Origin: Planctomycetota bacterium
GTDB taxonomy: Bacteria > Planctomycetota > GCA-002687715 > DRQF01
NCBI GenBank assembly: GCA_036479435.1
Contig: JAZGFI010000286.1
Location: 1-17,743 of the forward strand
DNA: 17,743 bases
Direction: 5' to 3'
The position numbers and the translations under genes are program-made. Below are positions 2,108 to 17,743 of the stretch, in pieces (position 1 is the first letter of the stretch; every line of letters begins with the position of its first letter). The notes beneath the pieces are model-generated. The model was given only the letters and a program-made list of their open reading frames with translations. It did no database searches and was not told the origin of the DNA.

Positions 2108-3112
2108 TCAAAGGCAGAGCTTCAAGAACTTCCCCACGTTCTCGCGGAAGGCCGAGCCGTGGCGGATATAGCGGCGAACGGTCGCCGTCGATTTCCAGCC
2201 ACCTTGCGCCATGATCGCTCTCTCGGGCGCGCCATCCGCGGCGGCTTGGGTCGCTAAGCCCGCGCGAAGCGAGTGACCTGAGAACTTTTCGGGATCTTTG
2301 AGCCCCGCCGCCTTTGCCGCCTTCTGAATGACACGCGCCACGGTGCGACCGTCGATCCGGTTTGGCTTCACGTTCCCGCCCTTGGTTACAGACCGGAAGA
2401 CCGGCCCGGACTCGATCTCGGCCAGGTCGAGCCAAGCCAAGAGCGCTCGGACGGGGCAAACTTTCAAATCGGATTGAAACAGAAGGCCCTTAACTGTGCC
2501 CTCGCCTTCTTGATCGGTTTTCGACCGGCGCAGGATGATTCGAAGGCCCTCTTCGGTTTGCTCGACGTCTTCCAGATCGAGGGCCGCCAGCTCCGACCGC
2601 CGAAACGCGCCATGGAATCCCGTCAACAGCAGCGCCCGGTCTCGAACGCCAAGCGCCCCGTCGCCAGTCGTCGCCAGCAATGCCCTAAGTTCTTCGCGGG
2701 TTATCGGAGTTGCTCCGTTCATCGCCACGCCTTTTTCGCGCCGAATCCCCTTCCAGACTTCTCGGCATCCAGGCTCAGCCGTGGGGGACCGGTGCCCGGC
2801 CAGTTGATGCGCCACGGCGATCGAGGATAGCCGCCGCTGAAGGGTTGAGGTTGAAAGCGCCTCCGCGAAGGCCGTCAGGTATCGCGCCACGGTTTCCGGG
2901 CTCGCTGGCAGGGAGTCGAGACCCGAGGCTGAACACCATTCGGAAAAGTGAGCCCAATCGGAGCGGTAAGCCCGTTGGGTTGCCTCGCTCCTGGCCGCCT
3001 TCGCGAAGTCGAGAGCCGCGGCGTCGATCTCGGCCGGGTTCACAAGCTCGCCGCGCTTGCCTCGGGTCGCCGGGAGGTTTTTGGTCTTCGGGGTGGTTGA
3101 TCGCTTCGCCAT
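2108..3112 (-). CDS. Tyrosine recombinase, Cre/XerC-like (N-terminal core-binding domain + catalytic domain)
   Basis: Catalytic set visible: R (FRRSEL), K (RSKTDQ), H-x-x-R (HSLRAG), W (GGW), Y (RRYI); N-terminal 'SEATQRAYRSDW..F..WC'. ATG 3112 has GAGGA 7 nt upstream. Confidence 0.95.
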   Translation of the reverse strand: MAKRSTTPKTKNLPATRGKRGELVNPAEIDAAALDFAKAARSEATQRAYRSDWAHFSEWCSASGLDSLPASPETVARYLTAFAEALSTSTLQRRLSSIAVAHQLAGHRSPTAEPGCREVWKGIRREKGVAMNGATPITREELRALLATTGDGALGVRDRALLLTGFHGAFRRSELAALDLEDVEQTEEGLRIILRRSKTDQEGEGTVKGLLFQSDLKVCPVRALLAWLDLAEIESGPVFRSVTKGGNVKPNRIDGRTVARVIQKAAKAAGLKDPEKFSGHSLRAGLATQAAADGAPERAIMAQGGWKSTATVRRYIRHGSAFRENVGKFLKLCL

Positions 3113-3123
3113 GGTCAAATCCT

Positions 3124-5291: not shown

Positions 5292-5389
5292 GCCACTCGA
5301 CTTTCTGGATGTTTCCCGACTTTTCCGACGGGGTCCATGGAGCCGCTCGACTTTGTGGGGCTTATCCGACTTTTCTGACGGGGTCTATG
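5292..5389 (+). repeat. Two tandem imperfect repeats, 50-bp period
   Basis: 5292-5339 vs 5342-5389, 39/48 identical, sharing CTCGACTTT and CCGACTTTTCYGACGGGGTCYATG. Confidence 0.8.
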
Positions 5390-6093
5390 CGCGAGGGGCT
5401 CAGGTGACTTTCTGGGGCCAATTTTCCATCCACTATAAAAAGGGAGCCGAGTTGACCGTCAAAAACGGCGCTAACGGTGGCATCGTCTTCGTTGCCGTCT
5501 TCTGACCTTGCAGGGCTCGGCACGGACACCGCGCGAGTTTCTGAGGGTTTCGCTCCGTAGTCGACGACCACCTTTTGCGGATCGGCTGGCTTTACTTCTA
5601 AGTCAGATTTTTGATCCGCCGCACGAATAGAGTGCCAATTGGCACTCTGTTTTCCGCTCCTTACTTTTGAGTCGGATTTTTGATCCTCGGGACGAATAGG
5701 GTATTGATTAATACTCTGTTTGCCGTCGTTTCCCGCTTTGGAGTCTGGTTTTTGCTCTCCAGGGGCACAATTAGAGTACCGATCGGTACTCTGTTGCTCT
5801 TCTTTGATTTGTTCGGTGGCGCTATGCAGCGAACGAGAGCCGCTTCTTACCTCTTTTGCGAGCTCGGGATCGGCCTTGGCAACGCTCTCGGCGCGGGCCA
5901 TCGACCGCCGACTAACACCCGCCTTTTTCGCCGCCTCTTTCAGCGTGTCGATTTTCGCGCGCGCCCTTTCATAAGGCGACTTTTTTGGAGTTTTGCGCCC
6001 ACCTTCGCGCGCGCGAGGCGCAAAAGGCTCACCGTCAAAGAAGGTGGCATCTCGATCTGGGGATCCGAGTTTCTGGGGCAGTTTTCGGTCCAC
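5362..6093 (-). CDS. HTH protein resembling the HTH/helical part of ParB-like phage proteins; possibly a fragment or pseudogene
   Basis: EAAKKAGVSRRSMARAESVAKADPELAKEVRSGSRSLHSA matches the pattern of that HTH; three ~23-25-aa internal repeats follow. No RBS at GTG 6093, and both ends lie in DNA repeats. Confidence 0.45.
   Translation of the reverse strand: MDRKLPQKLGSPDRDATFFDGEPFAPRAREGGRKTPKKSPYERARAKIDTLKEAAKKAGVSRRSMARAESVAKADPELAKEVRSGSRSLHSATEQIKEEQQSTDRYSNCAPGEQKPDSKAGNDGKQSINQYPIRPEDQKSDSKVRSGKQSANWHSIRAADQKSDLEVKPADPQKVVVDYGAKPSETRAVSVPSPARSEDGNEDDATVSAVFDGQLGSLFIVDGKLAPESHLSPSRIDPVRKVG
5406..5479 (+). repeat. ~74-bp imperfect direct repeat (second copy 6067-6139)
   Basis: Shared blocks TTTCTGGGGC, TCCACT..AAAAAGGG, ACCGTCAAA.ACGG and GCTAACGGTG in the same order and near-identical spacing. 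Confidence 0.75.
5592..5796. repeat. Three tandem 69-75-bp units, each containing a 20-bp palindrome
   Basis: Palindromes at 5629-5648 (AGAGTGCCAATTGGCACTCT), 5698-5717 (AGGGTATTGATTAATACTCT) and 5773-5792 (AGAGTACCGATCGGTACTCT); units share AGTCNGRTTTTTG and CTCTGTT. Confidence 0.9.
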
Positions 6094-6702
6094 TTAAAAA
6101 AGGGGATCGCCTCACCGTCAAATACGGTGGCTAACGGTGAACCCGAGACCTCGAAGAAAAGCCTTCATCATGCGAATTCGGGCTCTGAGGTAGTGGTTCT
6201 TGGCAAAGAAGGCCAAAAATGCGGTTGCCGTCAAAAACGGGGGCAATTCGCGAGGCTCTTGACCGCGCTTGCAGGGTCTCAGGCCACGAGCAAAGAGTGC
6301 CGAGGATTCGCCCGAATCGGGTTCGCCGACCCCGACACCCCAAAAGGCGCAGGCCGTGCGAAGCGCGAGCCACGCAACACCGATGCAACACCTAAAAAGG
6401 GCTGTTGCACGATCGGCCCTCAGATAGTTTCCGACCGCTTACGCGAGGCAGGTCGGCTCAACGCCTGCGGAGTTTCCGGAGTTTTCGGAGTCGGTCACGC
6501 GCGCGCGAGGCGCTCACTTTCTGGGGGTTCTTGAACGGCCTACGCGCGCACACGCGAGGCCCGACCACGATCAGGACGACACTCTCGCTGCCAGGGCGAA
6601 CCAGGAAGCGCCCTCAATGCTCAATTTGCTGACTTTGGCTTAGGTTTCTGGGGCCAAATCGTGGAAACATCGTCTCGACCAAGAACCGAGCGAGATGTAC
6701 TC

Positions 6703-6936
6703 ATGACCAGCGAACACGATGACCAACAACCGGACGCTGACCAGGCCGAGGCCGAGCCACGCGCTTTGACCTACCGACAAGCCGCGGATTCTGTCGGGGT
6801 TTCAATCCAAACCGTGCGACGGTGGTGCGCTTCGGGAAAGCTTCGGCGCGTCTTCCTCGCTGGCAAGGTTCCTCGAATCCTCTTGGCTGACCTTCACGCC
6901 TTCGCCTGCGAATCGCCGACCGCTCGCGCCGTCTAA
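6703..6936 (+). CDS. Excisionase/AlpA-like winged-HTH DNA-binding protein (HTH_17 type)
   Basis: ALTYRQAADSVGVSIQTVRRWCASGKLRRVFLAGKVPRILLADLHAF is the typical excisionase-family pattern. Confidence 0.85.
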   Translation: MTSEHDDQQPDADQAEAEPRALTYRQAADSVGVSIQTVRRWCASGKLRRVFLAGKVPRILLADLHAFACESPTARAV

Positions 6937-7096: not shown

Positions 7097-7972
7097 TCAT
7101 TGAGAGGCCCTCGCGGTGCCGTCGACGACGATCCCGCAGGCGCAAAGCCCAGCAACGAGGTTATTGACGGCTTGCAGGCTTAGGTTGGTGCCGCCGATCG
7201 AAATCATCGGAAGCGGCGCATCCTCCATTCGTTCTTGGTGCATTTCGAGTTCAACAGAGATTTCCCATTCGTCGATGACATCTCGACCGACTACAAAGCT
7301 GGGCCTGAATCGATGCGCCTCGCCAAACTTCGCGTCGATCGCCTCATCGTCCCAATCTTCACCAGATGTGAGATCAACAAACTCGGCAAAGGCCACTTGG
7401 TGACTTGTAAACACCGCGGCAATGCCAGGATCTACGTGCGACGAGAAGTGAGGGCCGCCAACTGGGGCCTTGTGAGCTTCAGCCTCGAAGCCTTCCGGCA
7501 AAACATCGCCGATCGCGCGGCCTTCCGACAGGTACTCATCGAGATCGAAGGGATCGGACGAGCTTAAGTCCAAGTTGCAAGCGCGACAGGCTTGGAAAAG
7601 GGCGCGCGCATCGTCGAGAGAGAAGAGGGGATAGGCGAAATCGGGATTGTCGGGGTTCACAAGCTCGATGAAGACTTCCGGGCTCCGCGGCTTGTCGCCG
7701 GATTTGCTCTCCCGATCCCACAAGTGCAGCGCCGCGCGGTTCCCGTTCGGCAGGCGGAAGCAGACGCGCGACTTCGCCAGGCGGTCAAGTGCCTCGTCGA
7801 AAAACCGTTCCTCGGCCTCGAGGGTCTCGAATTCATGACCGCCTGAGACGCTATTGAGATGGCGGCTCGCCTCCGCGTGAGTGCGGAATGCGGCGCTCAA
7901 GCCCTCGTCTTGAGGATTTTCGAAGCAGGACAGGGTCTCGGAGCCTTTCGGCTCGGGGCTGACAGGTGTCAT
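7097..7972 (-). CDS. Acidic hypothetical protein (291 aa)
   Basis: AAGGA 6 nt before the ATG; long ORF co-oriented downstream of the RHH gene; no recognised family. Confidence 0.75.
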   Translation of the reverse strand: MTPVSPEPKGSETLSCFENPQDEGLSAAFRTHAEASRHLNSVSGGHEFETLEAEERFFDEALDRLAKSRVCFRLPNGNRAALHLWDRESKSGDKPRSPEVFIELVNPDNPDFAYPLFSLDDARALFQACRACNLDLSSSDPFDLDEYLSEGRAIGDVLPEGFEAEAHKAPVGGPHFSSHVDPGIAAVFTSHQVAFAEFVDLTSGEDWDDEAIDAKFGEAHRFRPSFVVGRDVIDEWEISVELEMHQERMEDAPLPMISIGGTNLSLQAVNNLVAGLCACGIVVDGTARASQ

Positions 7973-8046
7973 AATGATTCCTTACTTGTTGCGGCTCCGA
8001 GCGACTTCTTTGCGGGGGAAGCTCGGGGCCGTGACTTTTTCGCTCG

Positions 8047-8286
8047 TTACCGGGAGCGAAGCCGTGCGGTGAACTCTCGCCGCAATTCATCTTCTGACGT
8101 AATTTGTCGCAAATCCTTCGGAGCCTTTGCCAGCGCCGCGAGGAAGGCCCTCACGACGGCCGAGCGGTTCAACGCCGTCCCGGTCTCTGTCCGCACGTTC
8201 GCTCGAAAGCCGTCAAGGCTCCCGACATTCTCATTCCTCAAGAGGAAGACTATGCGGCTCGTTGTGTTCTCTGGCTCTTTGGGCAC
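8047..8286 (-). CDS. Ribbon-helix-helix (CopG/Arc-like) regulator
   Basis: beta-strand RIVFLL, helix, then NRSAVVRAFL helix 2; GGAG RBS 9 nt before GTG; good promoter upstream. Confidence 0.65.
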   Translation of the reverse strand: MPKEPENTTSRIVFLLRNENVGSLDGFRANVRTETGTALNRSAVVRAFLAALAKAPKDLRQITSEDELRREFTARLRSR

Positions 8287-8830: not shown

Positions 8831-8970
8831 GAGATCCTCAGAACTTGTTCAGTCTGCGAGACTAACTTCGAGGAATTTGTTTTGTTCCGTCACTCTCAAC
8901 CACTTTCACCGAATCGCACAAATGAAAGAAGTGCGAGAAGTGCCTCGTGGTGTCATACGAGCGACACGTC

Positions 8971-9012
8971 CGCATCATATAGGCAGGAAACCACACCCTG
9001 CTATATTATGCG
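8971..9012. promoter_or_regulatory. Inverted repeat containing an extended -10 (TGcTATATT, 8999-9007), probable promoter/operator of the replication operon
   Basis: CGCATCATATAGGCAGG ... CCTGCTATATTATGCG, about 100 nt upstream of rep. Confidence 0.5.
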
Positions 9013-9109
9013 ACAACTTTTGCGGACAAAGCAGCTCAGAGCGTAAAGCTCTAATCGCTCGAATTAGTCATCGCAGGCCAGCTTCTAAGCCCCTTTGGGG
9101 TCTTGAGGA

Positions 9110-10882
9110 ATGGCTCAAATGCACGCGGAAAAAAAGTCGAACGAGGCCGCCACTAAGGCCCACAAATCCCGCAAATCCCGCAAATCTCCCCCGGATAAGA
9201 CCTCAAAAAATGTTCATTTTGTTGCCGGTGGCGATCCGAAAAATCGGAAGCCGGGAGGCTCTGGGGAGGGCCTTACCGAGTCAAATCGGGGCGCGGGCGG
9301 CGTCCCTGAAGGGGCCGGAAACCAGCAGGGAACCCTCTCGGACTTCCGAGCGCCGATGAACGGCGAAGTCCTTTTGGAGCGAGCCGTAAAGGGCGTTGCC
9401 AAAAGGTTCCCCAACGTATCCCACTCGACAGCCGCGGTCCTGGCGAACGCTATCGTTCGACGATCCCGGCAACACAGAGACCAAAACTACGCGCCTGGCA
9501 CCATTGATTCGATCGAGACGCTCGCCACTGAAGCCGATCTAACGCCCGGAACCGTCAGGCGAACGATCCCGGCATTGGTCGCTGCAGGGTTTCAACGGTT
9601 CGAAGTGCCATACGACCTTGTCCCGAGGCAGGGCGGCGAGAAAACCAGCAGGCCGAAGCGCCGAGCGCTCTTTGTTCCGCCTCAAATCGCGACGGTGACC
9701 CGCCCAGACGGTTCGCAGTTCAAGCGCCTCGTGTCACCCAACATCCACGCCGAAGCCTCTTACCGGGTTCTCAATCCGAGCCGGAGCAACAAGGCGGTCC
9801 GAAAGCCTGGCGACTATCTGGACTTTCCGACAGCCCGCCTCACTCCAACGATCCCGAAGGCCGCGCGAGACTTTGAACGGCCCATTAATGAGCCTTTCAA
9901 ACCTTCGAAATCGGACTTTGAAAGGCCCAGGAATGGGCCGGATGTATTAGAAGAGGATTCAAAGGCATTGAGAGGACTTGCGGAGCCATCCGGCTCCCCG
10001 CTCTCGGCTGAAGCCTCGACCACTCCTCAGCCTTGCGGCAAAGAAGGGGAGGCAGCGGACGCCAGTGCAAGCAGCGAGGGAAAAAGCTTTCGAGTCAAAG
10101 CAAAGCCCGCCGCTGGCGCGACCGAGATGCCGCGGCTCGCCGAAAAACCCGCCAAATCGCCGCCAAGCAGGCCCAGGTCGTCCGCTGCAAAGGCGAAAGG
10201 CGAGTCTCCGAGGGATTCGATTCAATCCGGTTCGAAAGCCGTGGCGGGGCGCTCAGGGGCTCAGAAGCGAAGCGGTAAAAAGCGGGGCAAGCTGAAGACG
10301 CCAGCCGATCCGAGGGCGAAAGCACCCAATTGCAACACATTCCTAACGGCGTTCGTTGACCAGCGCCGCCGACTAAGGCCGGATCTTCCCGAAATCACGC
10401 CTCTCGGAAACGCCAAGGACCGAGGCCAAGCCAAACTATTGCTCGAAGGTTGCGGCGGCTGGAAAGGGCTCATTGATCTCGCGAGCCACTTCGGGGTCGA
10501 TTCGTGGGAGGCCGTGGACGAGTTCTTGGCGATCATCGAAGACCCGAGCGGGTGCGACTGGAAGACAGGGAAAGCCGTGGCGGCGATCCGAGATGCGGGC
10601 TATCCGGTCGAGACGATTCAATCCGAAGGAAACCGCCGCACCTTGCTCGTTGCTGTTCAAGCTCGACTGGCCGAAAGGAAGCGCCGCAAAGACGAATCCG
10701 ACAAGATTAACCGCGAAATGCGCGAGGCCGATGAGCGGGCGGCGACGTTCCAGCCCGAGGAAAGTCGGCATTCAGACGCCGAAATTGACGAGGTTGTGGC
10801 CCGGCTTAATGCGAAGCACTCGCGCTCGACGGAAACAGTGACCGACCTCTATCTCCGGCAGGAAGCGGGGGCGGTCGCATGA
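9110..10882 (+). CDS. Putative replication initiator (N-terminal winged HTH, long low-complexity linker, C-terminal helical domain)
   Basis: HTH SIETLATEADLTPGTVRRTIPALVAAGF; first gene of the operon, coupled by ATGA to DnaB; internal iteron-like repeats. Start may be ATG 9119 (better GAGGA spacing). Confidence 0.7.
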   Translation: MAQMHAEKKSNEAATKAHKSRKSRKSPPDKTSKNVHFVAGGDPKNRKPGGSGEGLTESNRGAGGVPEGAGNQQGTLSDFRAPMNGEVLLERAVKGVAKRFPNVSHSTAAVLANAIVRRSRQHRDQNYAPGTIDSIETLATEADLTPGTVRRTIPALVAAGFQRFEVPYDLVPRQGGEKTSRPKRRALFVPPQIATVTRPDGSQFKRLVSPNIHAEASYRVLNPSRSNKAVRKPGDYLDFPTARLTPTIPKAARDFERPINEPFKPSKSDFERPRNGPDVLEEDSKALRGLAEPSGSPLSAEASTTPQPCGKEGEAADASASSEGKSFRVKAKPAAGATEMPRLAEKPAKSPPSRPRSSAAKAKGESPRDSIQSGSKAVAGRSGAQKRSGKKRGKLKTPADPRAKAPNCNTFLTAFVDQRRRLRPDLPEITPLGNAKDRGQAKLLLEGCGGWKGLIDLASHFGVDSWEAVDEFLAIIEDPSGCDWKTGKAVAAIRDAGYPVETIQSEGNRRTLLVAVQARLAERKRRKDESDKINREMREADERAATFQPEESRHSDAEIDEVVARLNAKHSRSTETVTDLYLRQEAGAVA

Positions 10883-12255
10883 TCGTTAAGCCCGCCAAGC
10901 TATCCGAGGAAGCTCGAAAGAAAGAAATAGCAGAACTAGCGGTGATCGGGAGAGCTTTCAATAATGGATCGTTTTTCCATTCCGAGACAACAATAAGAGC
11001 CGCGGCGTTTGAGACTCCAATCCGTCGGCAGATGTGGCAAGTCCTCTCGCGCATTCGTGCAAATGGCGAAGCGCCGACCGTGGCGAACGTTGTTGATGGA
11101 GTGAACGCGGACCCGAAGGACGTTGAGCGAGAACTATCGAGGTGCCAAGAGTTCGCGCACCTCACCGACGCTGAGGCCGTTGGCTTGATGCGCGCAGCGA
11201 GTGACGATCAGGCCGCGGCGTCGTTCGCCTCGATCGCGGCTCGCATTGCGAGCGAGCCAGGCCAAAAGAACCGACTTGACCTGATACACCAGGCCTTGTC
11301 GGACACGATCGCCGCTCAGCAGATCGACTCCGCTCCTGATTTCTTTGGGGCGTTCGCTGGCGAAGCCGTTAGGCAGTTGCTCGACCCAAAAGCCCGCGAA
11401 TTTCGACGACCAACGGGGCACGAGGCTTACGATCGACTAACTGCGGGAAGTGGCAACGCCGGCGGCGGGATTCTTCCGGGGACAATGGTCACGGTTGCAG
11501 GCCGACCAGGTCGAGGAAAATCCACCTTCGCTTTCGATGTTGCGAGATGCGCGGCCAAGACCGGGTGGCGACCTCTTATCGTCACTCTCGAAGTGCCACG
11601 GCACCGACTGATTCAAAACGTCCTGGCGGCTGAAGTCGGGTTCGACAAGCGGATATCGAAAGACAAGTTTGCCAGGCTTCCAGCTCACGCAACATTTGAG
11701 GAACTTGAAGCTGCGTCAGGATGTCTCGAAAGCCTTGCTATTCAGCAGCCCAAGAATCGTCAGATAGGGTCGATCCTGGCGACGGCGGAAACCTTTATTG
11801 CCGCCCACGGCTCCGATTTGGTCATGATCGACTATCTGGGAAAACTCCAGGGCGACGACCGAAAGCAAACGCGAGAAAACTACGCGGTATTTTGTCGGGA
11901 GATCCAAGCCTTTGCGATGCACTCGGGCGTCCCAGTAATGGTGATGGCTCAAGTGAATCGAAAGGTAGAAAGCGAAAGCGGTGATGGCGATGAGCGCCAG
12001 GCGCGTATGTCCGACTTGAACGAGTCGGCAGCCCTTGAGCATGATTCCGACGAGATTATTTTTCTGCGACGCATGTGCAAGCCGGATTGGCGGATATTGC
12101 CGGGAGATCCGGAGAACTTCGCCAAACGCCTCGTATGCCGAACAGAATTGAATCTGGCAAAGTCGCGCGACGGCGAAACGCGGGTTACTGAGGCTGATTT
12201 CGACATGAGTCGCGGGATCTTTATCGACGCACCAAGATCAGGAGCGGAAGAATGA
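10879..12255 (+). CDS. dnaB: DnaB-like replicative helicase (SF4)
   Basis: Walker A AGRPGRGKS, TLEV, Walker B MIDYLG, AQVNR, SDLNESAALEHDSD and LAKSRDG; N-terminal DnaB-like domain. Confidence 0.92.
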   Translation: MIVKPAKLSEEARKKEIAELAVIGRAFNNGSFFHSETTIRAAAFETPIRRQMWQVLSRIRANGEAPTVANVVDGVNADPKDVERELSRCQEFAHLTDAEAVGLMRAASDDQAAASFASIAARIASEPGQKNRLDLIHQALSDTIAAQQIDSAPDFFGAFAGEAVRQLLDPKAREFRRPTGHEAYDRLTAGSGNAGGGILPGTMVTVAGRPGRGKSTFAFDVARCAAKTGWRPLIVTLEVPRHRLIQNVLAAEVGFDKRISKDKFARLPAHATFEELEAASGCLESLAIQQPKNRQIGSILATAETFIAAHGSDLVMIDYLGKLQGDDRKQTRENYAVFCREIQAFAMHSGVPVMVMAQVNRKVESESGDGDERQARMSDLNESAALEHDSDEIIFLRRMCKPDWRILPGDPENFAKRLVCRTELNLAKSRDGETRVTEADFDMSRGIFIDAPRSGAEE

Positions 12256-13439
12256 GCCGAATTGCCGACGCCGTTGTTGATGCCGTTAGATGCCGGGCGG
12301 ACATGGTTTTGGTTGCAGAGTCGATCGGGCTCGTTGTCAAGAAAAGAGGCGGCGCGTTGTCGTTTACGACGTTGCGAAGCGAGGCCGACCCGTCAACGGC
12401 TCTTTATCCAGCCGGTTATGGCGACCGAAGCGATCCGCATTGGTTTGACTACGGCGAAAGAGTCGGCGGCGATGCCTTTGCGCTCGTTATGGCGGTGCAG
12501 GGTTGCAGTTTCCGCGAGTCCGTGGCGCACGTTGCAGGTGTGATCGGGTACGACATCGGCGACGTTGGCTCCGTGGAAGCCTTAAAGATGGCTCCGGCTC
12601 CGCCTAAGCCAAAAGCCCCCGAGCCGATGGCCGACGGCATCCAGGAACACACCTTTGATATTTTCTGCCGCGCCGTTCGACACGTTGTTCCAGAAGCCGC
12701 GGCTCAAGGCGCAAACCATTTGAGAAAGCGAGGCGTGATCGAATCAATCGCGGCGCGGTCTTGCTTGATTGTTCCGGCGGCGGCCTGGACTGAAATCGGC
12801 GAAGTCGCCAAGCGAGAGATCAAAGACCCGAGATGGCTCGAAGAGGCTGGCGTCTTGAGAGAAGACCAATACGGACGAGGGTTGCAGCCTTCGTGGCATG
12901 ACAACCGGGCGCTTTATCTCGCCTTGTCGCTAAATGGAGGGGGCGTTTTAACTCTCACGGCTCGGGCTCTTGCCGATGACGCGAGGTCGAAATATCTCGC
13001 GGTGGGTGGCGACAAGTGTCGATCCGTCAGGGCTCCGTTCAATTTGCCGGACCTCGAAGAGGCCAAGAAAACCGGCCAGCGGCTTTTGATTGTTGAAGGC
13101 CCAGCCGACGCCTACTCGGCGCGGTCTCTTGGGCTCCTGGCTATTGCGACAGGCTCGCGACCTCACGCCAAGGACAAGGACGACGATGTTGGGGCCGTTC
13201 CGAGAATGCTCAAACCGTATATCGAGGACTTCAAACAATGCAGCCAGGTTCTCGTGGCTCCCGACAACGACAAAGGCTTGATGAAAAGCGCACAGGGCAG
13301 CGCCTCATCGGTTGGCCTCGTTCGCTGGCTCAAAGAGCAATCAGTTTGGGCCAGCGTTGCCACGCTTCCGGATCTCAGAATTAGTGCCAACGACCTCGCC
13401 GAAGCCGCAGAAGCGAAACTAAGAGGGCAAGCAAGATGA
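12252..13439 (+). CDS. DnaG-like TOPRIM primase
   Basis: TOPRIM IVEGPADA and PDND, SKYL motif, NDLAE C-terminus; N-terminal zinc-binding-domain-like segment WFDYG..VGGDAFALVMAVQGCSFRESV. Confidence 0.88.
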   Translation: MSRIADAVVDAVRCRADMVLVAESIGLVVKKRGGALSFTTLRSEADPSTALYPAGYGDRSDPHWFDYGERVGGDAFALVMAVQGCSFRESVAHVAGVIGYDIGDVGSVEALKMAPAPPKPKAPEPMADGIQEHTFDIFCRAVRHVVPEAAAQGANHLRKRGVIESIAARSCLIVPAAAWTEIGEVAKREIKDPRWLEEAGVLREDQYGRGLQPSWHDNRALYLALSLNGGGVLTLTARALADDARSKYLAVGGDKCRSVRAPFNLPDLEEAKKTGQRLLIVEGPADAYSARSLGLLAIATGSRPHAKDKDDDVGAVPRMLKPYIEDFKQCSQVLVAPDNDKGLMKSAQGSASSVGLVRWLKEQSVWASVATLPDLRISANDLAEAAEAKLRGQAR

Positions 13440-15070
13440 CGACAGCGACTAAGGTTCTCCGCTCTCACCAGGCCGAAGGGATCGACGAGGCTCGCGAACT
13501 CTTCCGCGAAGGGAAGAAGGCGGTACTCGTCGAGAGAGCCACAGGCGCAGGTAAAACGGTCTTGGCGGCTGAAATCTTCCGGCTCGCCTATCCTCGGCCT
13601 TGCTTGTTCGTTGCGCCTCGTCGGGTTCTTGTGCGCCAAACTGAGAAGGCTATCCGGTCCTGGCTCGATGACGCGGAGCCGGTGGCCGTTGAGATGGCCG
13701 AACAGCACGGCCTAAGCGAAGCTGACGGCAAGGGGCCGCGAATCACGGTGGCCTCAATCCAAAGCCTGGCGCGGCGGATCGAGGAAGGCACGATCGACCC
13801 CGAGCGATTTGCCGGCGGCGTTGTCGTCGTCGATGAGGTTCACGCTATCGCCCTGGCCGAACGCTATCGCCCGGTGATCCTCGCTCTCCGGGACGCTGGC
13901 GCTCGGCTCATTGGCCTAACGGCGACCCCAAGCCGCAAAGACGATGGTCTCGAAGAGGTGTTTGACGGAGCCGTTGAGCCGGTCACGGTTGCCGATGCGA
14001 TCAAGGCCGGTTGGCTTGTGAAGCCGAAGCTATTCCTTCGCAGGCTCGACGCTGACCTTGGCAACGTCAAACGATCTCACGGCGACTTCGTTGAATCAGA
14101 GCTGGCGCGCGAGCTATCGACAGAAAAGGCCCTTGCCTCGATTTGCCGACCGATCATCGACCAAATCGACGATCGCCACGGGCTCGTTTTCGCAGCCGGA
14201 GCGGATCATGCCGAGAGTATCGCTCGGGTTCTTTGCACGATGAGCGGTGAGCCCGGCTTTGCGCGACCGATCTCGTACCGGACCAAAGAACGCGATCGGG
14301 TGGCGCTTGTCGAGGGCCTCGAAAACCGGCGATATCGACTCTTGGTCAACCCTTCGCTGTTGTCTGAGGGTTTCGATCTCCCGGCCATCAGCTTTATCGC
14401 CAACGCAAGGCCAACAAGCTCACGGGTCCGCCATGTTCAGGCCGTTGGCCGCGGCCTCCGTGCTTCGCCTGGCAAAACCGACTGTCTGGTTATCGAGTTC
14501 CACGCCAAAAACCTCCGCCACAAGCTCGCAGGCGCTTGGGATCTCGACGCCTCAGACGGACCCGCCGACCTCGGGGAGTTCATGGCGGAGATTGCGGAGC
14601 GCGAGGCGGACGAAGGCCGGGCGATCGCTCTCGACGACTTGCGAGCCTTGGCGGAGATAGAGCGGGCGGCTTGCCGGGTGGCGATCGTTTACGACCTGGC
14701 GCGTGTCGATCCGCTCGCGGCCATGGGGCTTGATCCGGAGACCTTCCAGGTTCAGGGCAACCTTGTGACCAGGCCAACAGACAAACAGGCCGAGTGCCTC
14801 AAACGCTCGGGAGTCAAGGCGGATCAGATCGCGGGACTATCTCGCCGCTCAGCCTCGAAGATCATTGATGTGATCGTGAAGCGCAGCCAAGAAGGACTAT
14901 CGACGCTCAAGCAAGCGCGGACGCTGACTCGCCACGGGTTCGACGGCAAGTCGGCGACGTTCGATCAAGCGCGGGACGTTTTGGAGCGTATCGGGGGCCT
15001 TGGGTGGCACCTATCGCCGATTCAAGTGACCGAGATTGCCGCTGTTTGCGGCGTGAATGTTCGAAAGTGA
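13436..15070 (+). CDS. Superfamily 2 DExH-box helicase (RadD/YejH/Irc3-like)
   Basis: Q motif LRSHQ, ATGAGKT, VDEVH, GLTATP, LSEGFDLP, QAVGRGLR; C-terminal PTDKQ/STLKQ helical repeats. Confidence 0.92.
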   Translation: MTTATKVLRSHQAEGIDEARELFREGKKAVLVERATGAGKTVLAAEIFRLAYPRPCLFVAPRRVLVRQTEKAIRSWLDDAEPVAVEMAEQHGLSEADGKGPRITVASIQSLARRIEEGTIDPERFAGGVVVVDEVHAIALAERYRPVILALRDAGARLIGLTATPSRKDDGLEEVFDGAVEPVTVADAIKAGWLVKPKLFLRRLDADLGNVKRSHGDFVESELARELSTEKALASICRPIIDQIDDRHGLVFAAGADHAESIARVLCTMSGEPGFARPISYRTKERDRVALVEGLENRRYRLLVNPSLLSEGFDLPAISFIANARPTSSRVRHVQAVGRGLRASPGKTDCLVIEFHAKNLRHKLAGAWDLDASDGPADLGEFMAEIAEREADEGRAIALDDLRALAEIERAACRVAIVYDLARVDPLAAMGLDPETFQVQGNLVTRPTDKQAECLKRSGVKADQIAGLSRRSASKIIDVIVKRSQEGLSTLKQARTLTRHGFDGKSATFDQARDVLERIGGLGWHLSPIQVTEIAAVCGVNVRK

Positions 15071-15083
15071 AAGGGATCTAGGC

Positions 15084-15332
15084 ATGACGAATAGACCTAA
15101 GAAGATTGGGCGACCGACATCGAGAACGCCTGCGCTTATCAACACGATCATGGCGCGAATCACGGGCGGCTCGTCGTATGACAACGCGGCGCGCGAGGCC
15201 GGGGTCAGCCCTACTTCCTTTTGGCAATGGCGGAAGCGAGACCCCGAGTTAGAGGAGATGGCGGCCAAGGCTCGCGTTGGCGCTTGGCAACGGGGGTCCG
15301 CTGAAAGGCGATCGGCACTCTCGGCCTCTTGA
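15084..15332 (+). CDS. Terminase small subunit-like HTH protein (82 aa)
   Basis: GRPTSRTPALINTIMARITGGSSYDNAAREAGVSPTSFWQWRKRDPELEEMAAKAR matches the N-terminal DNA-binding domain pattern of Sf6-gp1-type small terminases (GRP.kyt.e....ic..i..G.sl...c...g.p...tv..W....peF...y..AR). Confidence 0.65.
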   Translation: MTNRPKKIGRPTSRTPALINTIMARITGGSSYDNAAREAGVSPTSFWQWRKRDPELEEMAAKARVGAWQRGSAERRSALSAS

Positions 15333-15676: not shown

Positions 15677-15737
15677 TACCCTGAATCCGCAATGCTGACC
15701 CCGAGACGATTCGGGGCGCTTTGCTTTGAAAGGGTCC

Positions 15738-16499
15738 ATGATGACACCAAGCCTTCGGGTTGCCGTTGCTTCGTCCAAAGGCGGAACAGGCAAAAGCACA
15801 GTTACGAGCGCCGTTGGCTCAATCCTCGCCAGGTCCGGGTTGTCCGTTCTTGTCGTTGACCTCGATCCGCAAGGTGATGCGACCTTTGCTCTCGGAGGCG
15901 ATCCGGCCCGAGACGGCGCGGCTGAGTTCCTTTTGGGCGAAGGCCCTGCGCCGGAAGTCGTCGCCGAAAACCTTGCGGTCCTGGCCGGTGGGCCTCGCCT
16001 TGAGTCGATCGACGTTGAGCGACTCGACCCGGAGGCGCTTTTAGATGGCCTGGCCGGGTTCGACTTCGATGCGGTTGTGGTCGATTCGCCGCCCGGAGCG
16101 CCCTACCTTCGCCGCTTTGCTCTCGTTGCCGCATCCGTGGCGCTCATTCCATGCTCAGCGCACCCGTTCTCAGTTCGCGCCGCTGGCGAAATCCTCGACG
16201 AGATCGAGGGCCGCAGGGAAAGAGGCCGCCCGGTGGCCGAACGCGCCGCCCTTGTTGCGAACGCGATCGACCGCCGCCGAAGCCTCGACGCGACCTTCGC
16301 CGATGAGATGGCCGGGCTCTACGGCGACCGGGCTGAAGTATTGGAGGTTCGGCAAGACGCAGCCTTGGCCCTCGCCACGGCCTCGCGCGAACCGATCGCC
16401 TATTCTGAGTCGCTTCGAGGCAATACCCGCGGCCTGGCTGACCTCGAAGCCCTCGTTCGGTGGGTTCAAGGCGAAGCCGAACGCGAGGAGGGCGCTTAG
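15738..16499 (+). CDS. parA: ParA/Soj-family partition ATPase
   Basis: Deviant Walker A SSKGGTGKST, VDLDPQG, VVVDSPPG; no N-terminal HTH. Confidence 0.95.
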   Translation: MMTPSLRVAVASSKGGTGKSTVTSAVGSILARSGLSVLVVDLDPQGDATFALGGDPARDGAAEFLLGEGPAPEVVAENLAVLAGGPRLESIDVERLDPEALLDGLAGFDFDAVVVDSPPGAPYLRRFALVAASVALIPCSAHPFSVRAAGEILDEIEGRRERGRPVAERAALVANAIDRRRSLDATFADEMAGLYGDRAEVLEVRQDAALALATASREPIAYSESLRGNTRGLADLEALVRWVQGEAEREEGA

Positions 16500-17360
16500 A
16501 TGGCTCGCAAAGCAAAGCGACCGGATTACGCGGCGGCAGCAGCAGCCGGGGCCTCGAACACGGCCCGCAGGCGCGACCTCGAATCGGTAGCCGCGGCTAA
16601 GGTTGTTGCAGCGACGATGAAACTCGACCAGGTGGAAGCTCGCGCACACGGAAACGCTCGCGCTCTCGATCCAAATCACGTTTACGAGTTAGCGGTAAGT
16701 ATTGCGGCGACCGGGCTCATTCAGCCAATTGCAGTTGACCGCGTTGGGCGGCTTGTGGCAGGCGGCCATAGACTCGCTGCCGTCTTATTGCTCTCGAAGA
16801 CACCAGCCGAACGCGAAGCCTTCGCCGCCGCACTCGAAGAAGAAGCAGGGAAGATTGGGGATGGCGACCTATGGGCCGCAGCCTATGAGGCGAAGCGCGG
16901 GGCCAACGCGATCGCCGTTTTTCGAATCGACTTCAACTCGAAGACGGACGCGGACAGAGCCTTGGCGATCGAGGTGGCCGAGAACGAGAAGCGGCGCGAC
17001 TTCACGGCAGCGGAGGTTAAGAAACTCGCTGACCGACTTCGTGGGTTCGGGTATCGCGACAAGGGTGGACGGCCAAAGAGGGGAGAGCGGGCGCTTACGC
17101 CAGCCTTGGCGGCGATCGTTGGGAAGTCCCGGCGAACCGTTATTCGATATCTTGCGCCGGACTCTAAAACGGTGACAAGTGTCACAGTTTCCGAGGCGGC
17201 CAAGATCGACCCCGACAAGGCGCTAAGGCGGGCTCGGGCCGCCGCGGATGCGCTTGTCGAGGCGCTAAAAGGCGCGCGAGGGGCTCGAAAAGAGGCCAAG
17301 GAGGCGGCCTTGGATCTTTCGTCGGCAATCAATCGGGCTTTGGGTGAAGATGAGGAATAG
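16500..17360 (+). CDS. parB: ParB/Spo0J-family CTPase partition protein
   Basis: Box I GLIQPIAV, box II AGGHRLAA (GxxRxxA), ENEKRRDF, HTH LAAIVGKSRRTVIRYL; abuts parA. Confidence 0.92.
   Translation: MARKAKRPDYAAAAAAGASNTARRRDLESVAAAKVVAATMKLDQVEARAHGNARALDPNHVYELAVSIAATGLIQPIAVDRVGRLVAGGHRLAAVLLLSKTPAEREAFAAALEEEAGKIGDGDLWAAAYEAKRGANAIAVFRIDFNSKTDADRALAIEVAENEKRRDFTAAEVKKLADRLRGFGYRDKGGRPKRGERALTPALAAIVGKSRRTVIRYLAPDSKTVTSVTVSEAAKIDPDKALRRARAAADALVEALKGARGARKEAKEAALDLSSAINRALGEDEE
17167..17190. promoter_or_regulatory. Candidate parS palindrome within parB
   Basis: AAACGGTGACAAGTGTCACAGTTT (core GTGACA-AG-TGTCAC) just after the HTH-coding region. Confidence 0.5.
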
Positions 17361-17379
17361 GGCGCAAACCGCTCAAAGT

Positions 17380-17408
17380 TTGAACTTTTCGCCGGATTGT
17401 CCGATAGT
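17380..17408 (+). promoter_or_regulatory. sigma70-like promoter downstream of parB
   Basis: TTGAAC, 17 nt, GATAGT (same -10 as the 8329 promoter); the -35 is overlapped by palindrome AAAGTT-TG-AACTTT (17375-17388). Confidence 0.55.
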
Positions 17409-17414
17409 GGAATA

Positions 17415-17661
17415 GAAGTGACACCGGCTCGCAGCCCTCACTTCCGCTCAAGCTCAAGCCTGGCAGGGTGCCACGGTTGAGGTGGGAACCAAGATCGCCA
17501 TCAGGGACGGCTATCCCGGCGAGAGCTTCGGTCCCCCCGCTTCCCGCCCTGGCGAGCGAGACAAGGCGTGTCACCACGCGGCAGAGAGGACCAGTCGAAC
17601 CGGTGTCGAAAACAGTTTAAGCCCCTCGCGGACGATTGCTCGCCGCGAGGGGCTTTTTTTT
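17415..17661 (+). ncRNA. Candidate structured non-coding RNA of unknown family (~245 nt)
   Basis: Bounded by a promoter and a strong terminator, with no credible ORF; long closing stem 17420-17447/17578-17607 enclosing several hairpins. Confidence 0.55.
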
Positions 17662-17743
17662 GTCGATCAAATCACGTTCGCTGGACTTCACCATGCGGAT
17701 CAAATCCATCGCAGGATAATGACTGAAACGAGGTGCGGATTAA
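17617..17743 (+). repeat. Terminal direct repeat, copy 2 (probable assembly circularisation overlap)
   Basis: Identical to 1-127. Confidence 0.95.

Follow-up and report, generated by a model that had tools for sequence, protein, structure and literature searches.

A terminator-bounded, non-coding stretch behind parB on a small planctomycetal element: possible regulatory RNA or DNA site

We undertook a computational analysis of the stretch directly behind the partition gene parB on a small element from a Planctomycetota bacterium, for which an initial annotation, made from the sequence alone, had proposed an undescribed, structured non-coding RNA (ncRNA). The window analyzed is the whole of contig JAZGFI010000286.1 (17,743 nucleotides (nt)), to which all coordinates refer, and the stretch under study comprises the 258 nt from the parB stop (17360) to an intrinsic terminator, plus the terminator itself. 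The last 127 bases of the contig are identical to the first 127 (1–127 = 17617–17743), so that it closes on itself as a 17,616-bp circle, and the terminator behind parB falls within this end overlap. ParA (15726–16499) and ParB (P0002; 16500–17360) are encoded on the + strand ahead of the stretch. The circle also encodes a recombinase, an excisionase-type helix-turn-helix (HTH) protein and helicases; therefore, based on its gene content, it is a small integrative plasmid-like element carrying an integrase. ParB proteins identical to that of the element are encoded on three contigs in a collection of 15 billion proteins and, because the longest of these (30,690 nt) exceeds the circle, the element may exist additionally in a larger or integrated form. 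The host genome is 5.47 Mb in size and 92% complete.

The following features between the parB stop and the end of the terminator are all read on the + strand. A pair of promoter-like hexamers (TTGAAC-17 nt-GATAGT, 17380–17408) had been annotated as a promoter; the hexamers are present, but they are a weak match (8 of 12 consensus positions) and were not among the calls of a promoter scan, which called no promoters. Beyond them, the 5′ arm of a closing stem, P1 (17419–17431), pairs with a partner at 17596–17608 in both the minimum free energy (MFE) and centroid structures. The inverted repeat 17420–31/17596–607 within it pairs at 11 of 12 positions, as had been claimed (12 of 12, with a G·U pair, on the − strand), and its continuations CCTC/GAGG, CT/AG and CCGC/GCGG are all in the sequence. 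The inner pairings that the initial annotation described are present too, namely hairpin H1 (17453–17481), which doubles as a 29-bp DNA palindrome and is readable as an 11-7-11 site, and the interrupted hairpin H2 (17488–17532; ACC/GGU, AAG/CUU, UCGCC/GGCGA and GGGA/UCCC), which is found in the MFE and centroid structures. A third hairpin, H3 (17566–17579; GCGUG/CACGC), is part of the MFE structure and includes the heptamer GTGTCAC (17568–74). The C-rich tract CCCCCCGCTTCCCGCCCT (17533–17550) is unpaired when the annotated helices are assembled into one structure, hereafter the curated fold. In the terminator (17619–17661), arms of 13 nt (17619–31/17643–55) are fully complementary, as annotated, and form a perfect G+C-rich stem followed by T8; it is of the intrinsic (rho-independent) type, a G+C-rich hairpin directly before a U tract. 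It was unlisted by a consensus scan, presumably owing to the 3–8 loop limit of that scan as opposed to the 11-nt loop here.

A diverged copy of the stretch was found in sequencing run X12, a hydrothermal-vent metagenome, as short contigs of depth 4–7. One of these (record 5) aligns with 17310–17568 with 19 substitutions and 13 gap letters, the other (record 6) with 17551–17658 with nine substitutions and one gap. Differences were listed only at positions at least about 31 nt from the aligned ends, which makes ~17341–17537 and 17582–17627 visible and leaves 17538–17581 essentially unseen, with eight differences in record 5 and six in record 6 hidden near the contig ends. The visible substitutions are distributed unevenly: 11 are in 17353–17442, one is at 17584 and two are at 17624 and 17626, and there are none in 17443–17537 (95 nt), which holds H1 and H2, or in 17585–17623 (39 nt), which spans the linker before the terminator as well as the 3′ arms of helices P1b and P1. 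We refer to these two parts as the conserved core. When core and flanks are compared, one of 137 visible core positions is substituted versus 13 of 106 in the flanks (about 12%; Fisher p = 1.2e-4; p = 7e-4 for record 5 alone). The parB pieces from X12 have 11 differences in 79 positions and 6 in 39. The terminator of the relative is changed at 17624 and 17626 and at further positions outside the listed range, and after 17658, directly past the terminator, its sequence is unlike the window. Therefore, the conserved block goes with parAB and not with the genes downstream, and the link to a downstream sigma-like operon that the initial annotation had drawn is unlikely. Both promoter-like hexamers are unchanged amid eight substitutions in 17362–17416, which is not significant (p about 0.14). 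A perfect A+T-rich palindrome, AAAGTTTGAACTTT (17375–17388), overlaps the −35-like hexamer and is broken in the relative by a change at 17378.

The relative also has three indels in the core: a 6-nt deletion at 17446, by which one copy of a tandem GCTCAA is gone, a 7-nt deletion at 17536 within the C-rich tract, and the deletion of one A at 17598/99, by which the C·A mismatch of the closing stem becomes a bulge. No reading frame survives indels of 6, 7 and 1 nt, which makes the stretch non-coding. The initial annotation had seen no open reading frame (ORF) on the + strand in the track supplied to it; taken literally this does not hold, since frames of 50 and 87+ residues are open in the stretch and stop codons interrupt the core in three of its six frames and leave the other three open. 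However, the 15-billion protein collection contains none of these ORFs, none has a Pfam match, and the two translated core frames have no homologue in a set of 5.8 billion proteins.

Because the stretch is non-coding and nearly constant in one diverged relative, it probably has a function, which could be that of an RNA or that of a DNA site. The reading that we favor, tentatively, is a + strand ncRNA, either as the 3′ tail of the parAB message or as a separate small RNA (sRNA). This is because P1, P1b, H1 and H2 have no substitution in the relative and H3 changes compatibly, whereas the linkers take the substitutions and indels. In the curated fold, the substitutions at 17416, 17433, 17442 and 17584 and all three indels are at unpaired positions, which make up 45% of those visible; the curated fold was settled after the variant was known, so this comparison is not clean. 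Past 17568, record 5 ends in nine loose letters that, aligned without gaps, include four transitions (17569, 17572, 17575 and 17576), of which two turn U-A pairs of H3 into C-G, one turns G-C into G·U (on the + strand only; it gives C·A on the − strand) and one is in the loop. This is a weak sign of pair-keeping: of the 126 ways to place four transitions at random in those nine positions, 66 likewise keep the pairs. Such comparative hints, together with the almost unchanged + strand fold energy of the variant, lean to the + strand, contrary to the single-sequence energies. In addition, the neighbouring genes and the terminator are both oriented on the + strand, and there is no terminator between the parB stop and 17619; therefore, read-through from parAB is expected, and the parAB message should at the least include the region as its 3′ tail.

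In the mechanism we propose, the stretch would be the non-coding tail of the parA-parB unit, transcribed from the + strand, to which the weak promoter at 17380–17408 may contribute transcripts of ~245 nt. The closing stem (17419–31/17596–608) would enclose H1, H2 and H3, with the C-rich tract single-stranded between H2 and H3 and the terminator directly after the 3′ arm of the stem. A terminator hairpin running into U8 is what base-pairing small RNAs usually have at their 3′ end. Judging from this architecture, the product could be a regulatory RNA, borne in the 3′ untranslated region (3′-UTR) or made separately, that acts through base-pairing of its C-rich tract to ribosome-binding regions rich in G; we infer that the RNA is the active molecule, along with its fold, 5′ end and target. 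If real, it would be a small regulatory RNA or 3′-UTR element on a plasmid with a very narrow known distribution. In the literature found, which was represented in part by titles and the beginnings of abstracts, there is no description of an RNA gene directly downstream of parB. A 2026 preprint (PMC13371061) reports, in the portion available, that in Caulobacter the parB mRNA has a structure at its 5′ end that raises the ParB level, which concerns the opposite end of the gene from this stretch. If the core is RNA, it would represent a new plasmid-borne regulatory RNA family attached to a partition operon, with a sequence interlaced with a centromere motif, and a simple system for cross-talk between partition and gene control. 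The weight of this is modest, as the data comprise one element and one near relative.

A number of results weigh against a + strand RNA. Without the terminator, the + strand of 17415–17612 has a folding z-score of −1.37 and 17 of 200 shuffled sequences fold equally well, which does not support the structured fold of the initial annotation: on the + strand, the energy is in the range expected by chance. The z-score of −3.6 obtained for 17415–17661 is due to the inclusion of the terminator. The reverse complement of 17415–17612 folds better (z −4.58, 1 of 200 shuffles as good), and folding as single-stranded DNA is not compelling on either strand (z −1.7 on + and −2.5 on −). In a scan of the element in 88 non-overlapping segments of 198 nt, with 20 shuffles each, the candidate ranks seventh by its better strand, with a + strand z-score of −0.7, and is not an outlier; other segments reach −5.5, −5.4 and −4.2 on that strand. 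The curated fold is 22 kcal/mol above the MFE, and the frequency of the MFE structure in the ensemble is 0.002. The changes at 17442 and 17584 in the relative break the MFE pairs 17442–17583 and 17441–17584, in a structure computed beforehand, and with them both pairs of the annotated CT/AG helix. Furthermore, no genuine covariation is seen, the comparison being with one relative in two short, low-depth contigs, and a recent short recombination tract would likewise yield an invariant block. Among 17 listed public runs, 12, from seven studies, contain the stretch or part of it (nine of them at least half of its words), and none of these is on record as RNA. Runs X8, X10 and X11 have identical pieces only, and identical copies of 16500–17743 are in runs labelled as invertebrate, symbiont and other metagenomes.

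Searches for homologues were made with both the region and its ParB. By sequence, 17361–17680 had no match in eight other genomes of the family, in 22 other genomes of the order, or among PLSDB plasmids or phage records, and exact-word scans (29-mer and 20-mer) of IMG/VR viral contigs had no hit. A single 20-mer match among GTDB genome contigs, in a Gaiellaceae metagenome-assembled genome, was rejected as chance, as its flanks do not align. Within the host genome, no second copy of 17300–17743 was found by blastn (E ≤ 0.001). A search with ParB alone yielded no relative among GTDB genome contigs or viral contigs; 93 homologues besides itself, with at most 50% identity, are known from our searches, and the related-ParB loci collected are 80 metagenomic, two viral and six from four genomes of the phylum. 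The expectation of the initial annotation that counterparts would be found downstream of related parB genes was not borne out at this distance: 86 such loci contained no match to the region by blastn or nhmmer (best E 1.2 and 0.06), and, as a further point against the RNA, a covariance model of the curated fold (R1) searched against 87 loci and the window found the window itself only.

No known RNA family was matched, in line with the initial annotation, which had seen no signature of transfer RNA (tRNA), transfer-messenger RNA (tmRNA), SRP or RNase P. In the whole window, there were no Rfam 15 matches at gathering thresholds and ARAGORN found no tRNA or tmRNA genes. At permissive thresholds, the + strand matched only sRNA models below threshold, which aligned with the C-rich tract and terminator: Burkholderia anti-hemB (RF02837, 26.4 bits against a gathering threshold of 49.5), ncS54 (RF02871, 24.2 against 43) and the Betaproteobacteria toxic sRNA (RF02278, 21.9 against 50). 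Those matches ending at 17660–17668 rest on the terminator, and that to anti-hemB is driven by the C-rich tract. The stretch is like 3′-UTR-derived and terminator-sharing sRNAs in its place at an operon 3′ end, its G+C-rich hairpin with a long U tail and the C-rich tract upstream, but it differs from the three families in scoring far below their thresholds, mostly through the terminator, and in its branched body of about 200 nt. Pairing of the stretch with 17 translation start regions in RNAduplex gave nothing usable (best −62.4 versus a shuffle mean of −55.2, standard deviation 3.4, with unrealistic long loops). The initial annotation had also called the length and closing stem 6S-like while noting a branched interior, and the stretch does have a similar length and a long closing stem; however, 6S RNA is a rod with a central bubble, whereas the interior and predicted folds here are branched, and there was no Rfam 6S match (RF00013 and related) even at E ≤ 10, so that a 6S-like RNA is not supported. 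A retron msr-msd region is comparable in that a structured segment, here of ~165 nt, is closed off by inverted repeats (12 nt here, a1/a2 in retrons), but here a terminator directly follows the structure, and none of the 17 larger ORFs of the element has a reverse transcriptase domain. Overall, the proposal of an undescribed element-encoded ncRNA is supported insofar as the stretch is non-coding, terminator-bounded, outside Rfam and conserved in its core, but not in its + strand fold, which is not above that of shuffles.

The centromere (parS) of the element has a direct bearing on how the stretch is read. Inside parB, 188 nt before its stop, is a perfect 6-2-6 palindrome, GTGACAAGTGTCAC (GTGACA-NN-TGTCAC, 17172–17185), of which this is the sole perfect copy in the window and in the 5.47-Mb genome, and which is probably the parS of the element. 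A perfect 6-2-6 palindrome is present 135–225 nt before the parB stop in 24 of 81 related-ParB loci (19 of 74 distinct 3′ ends; among them L009, L013, L019, L022, L024, L026, L046, L048, L049, L053, L059, L063, L067 and L091), versus 1 of 77, 0 of 80, 2 of 81 and 6 of 73 in control intervals of the same size. The arms vary by lineage (CTGACA, CGGACA, ACGAAA and others), so that the intragenic palindrome is probably a parS co-evolving with its ParB. A family with an intragenic centromere at a fixed place and varying arms is a ready set of ParB-parS specificity pairs. Some relatives repeat their palindrome after the stop: there are four copies at a spacing of 38 nt from +41 onward in locus L030, three in L035 and two in L018 (spacing 38–40 nt), in which the palindrome CGGACATGTGTCCA lies within AAAAGT...CCTTTTT (L030:4695–4822, L035:1998–2087, L018:829–882), and L028, L042 and L046 each have one copy at +25 to +40. 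The arrays are of the classical centromere type. With a palindrome inside parB and copies after the stop in relatives, which together form a centromere signature, the space behind parB would therefore be centromere territory in this ParB family. In other systems, parS is inside spo0J in B. subtilis, and P1 plasmid parS and F sopC are downstream of parB and sopB.

Given this setting, an accessory centromere or other ParB DNA site is a less likely alternative to the RNA. ParB would bind the GTGACAC heptamers, perhaps along with H1, and thereby aid its own loading or retention beside the intragenic parS, or repress the promoter whose start the left half-site overlaps. The half-site GTGACAC (17418–17424) is at +58 from the parB stop, close to the range of 25–57 nt in which relatives have full copies, and the closing stem begins inside it, as does the predicted transcript; the second half-site, GTGTCAC, follows 143 nt past it; the two joined would read GTGACA-CG-TGTCAC. 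The window has four copies of the heptamer, three of them in 17179–17574, and the intragenic palindrome is at the family-typical place; the six relatives just named have copies of their own palindromes downstream of parB. Binding of ParB to half-parS heptamers is published for Pseudomonas aeruginosa, according to the portions of those reports available (PMC10419367; 10.1101/280743). The initial annotation had read the two heptamers as a 7-bp pairing that could act as a switch; both are present, but the one at 17568–74 appears changed in the relative, and the pairing is probably simply that of two parS half-sites. Like parS centromeres, the stretch is directly downstream of parB and has heptamers that are the arms of the palindrome inside parB, and relatives have full arrays of their own palindromes at this place. 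Unlike them, it has no complete palindrome or tandem array in 17361–17661, where half-sites occur only at 17418 and 17568, and its conserved block is far longer. The right half-site is seemingly altered at two positions in the relative, albeit at a loose contig end, the perfect intragenic site may suffice for partition, and 7-bp sites cannot account for about 135 invariant positions.

It is also conceivable, at about the same low probability as a ParB site, that the stretch has no specific function and is a 3′ untranslated spacer with the chance palindromes of G+C-rich DNA, its invariant block being a recently exchanged tract. This would fit the + strand folding energy within the range of shuffles, the middling rank of the candidate among the 88 segments, the presence of about 30 inverted pairs of at least 9 nt in the 1.3 kb around the stretch, and the fact that homologues are limited to one near relative, with conservation read from two short low-depth contigs. 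Against it, the invariant sequence is in two parts (95 and 39 nt) with a variable hairpin between them and diverged flanks on either side, which calls for either two tracts or selection, and three indels to one substitution in the core is odd for a fresh exchange. In addition, half-sites at a family-typical distance are unlikely by chance (about 0.005, an estimate, for the left one).

A site for the tyrosine recombinase, either attP or for multimer resolution, is improbable. H1 would be its 11-7-11 core (CTCAAGCCTGG-CAGGGTG-CCACGGTTGAG) and the conserved surroundings would be accessory sequences. The geometry of H1 is that of a simple tyrosine-recombinase site, the integrase is Xer-like with no arm-binding domain detected, and the element has a gene of the excisionase family. 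Resolution sites such as cer are about 200–280 bp long and conserved, and the relative ceases to be similar about 180 nt past H1. However, that break in synteny is at the terminator and not at H1, the 92%-complete genome has no further H1 copy at up to three mismatches in addition to having no second 17300–17743, and int, itself flanked on both sides by about 400 nt of non-coding DNA, is some 2.1 kb away.

A combination of RNA and centromere is quite improbable: an RNA gene inside a former second parS, in which the halves of GTGACA-CG-TGTCAC flank the 143-nt insert and ParB bound to the half-sites would control the regulatory RNA, coupling the ParB level to copy number, excision or cargo expression. 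Control of RNA synthesis by ParB would follow from the overlap of the left half-site with the RNA start and closing stem.

Very improbable is an antisense RNA from the − strand. Its appeal is energetic: it outperforms all but one of the shuffles, at −103.9 kcal/mol, its MFE lies below those of all other segments with listed energies, and the mismatch of P1 turns into a G·U pair. No promoter-like site was found downstream on the − strand, though, transcription would have to cross the strong terminator hairpin, and most listed genes are on the + strand. The 7-nt deletion in the relative removes a helix specific to the − strand, which loses 12 kcal/mol, while the + strand energy goes from −82.1 to −81.1, and the change at 17575 gives C·A. 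Three further candidates were rejected: a replication origin, as the stretch has no direct repeats and iteron-like repeats are at 5292–5792; an attP overlapping a tRNA gene, as there is neither a tRNA-like sequence nor a second copy in the genome; and a leader or riboswitch of the downstream operon, as the relative differs directly past the terminator and Rfam gave no hit.

Elsewhere on the element, the listed genes are on the + strand except for three, int (2108–3118), matched to the Xer-like tyrosine recombinases in a family library, 5362–6093 and 7097–7972. Those on the + strand encode the excisionase-type HTH protein (6661–6936), a 590-residue protein without a known family (9110–10882), a DnaB-type helicase (10879–12255), a primase-like protein (12252–13439), an SF2 helicase (13436–15070) and a small terminase-like HTH protein (15057–15332). 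Between 7972 and 9110 there is no ORF with a family match, though the ORFs there were not searched against family libraries, and the segments 7936–8133 and 8926–9123, which have no Rfam hit, are among the most stably folding on the + strand of the element (z −5.5 and −4.2, 20 shuffles). The iteron-like direct repeats comprise two copies of 48 nt (5292–5389) and two of 65–69 nt (5592–5725), and two perfect 20-bp palindromes, AGAGTGCCAATTGGCACTCT (5629–48) and AGAGTACCGATCGGTACTCT (5773–92), are nearby; the + strand of 5560–5757 folds with a z-score of −5.4. This region (5292–5792) overlaps the doubtful ORF at 5362–6093 on the − strand and is likely a replication origin or operator region.

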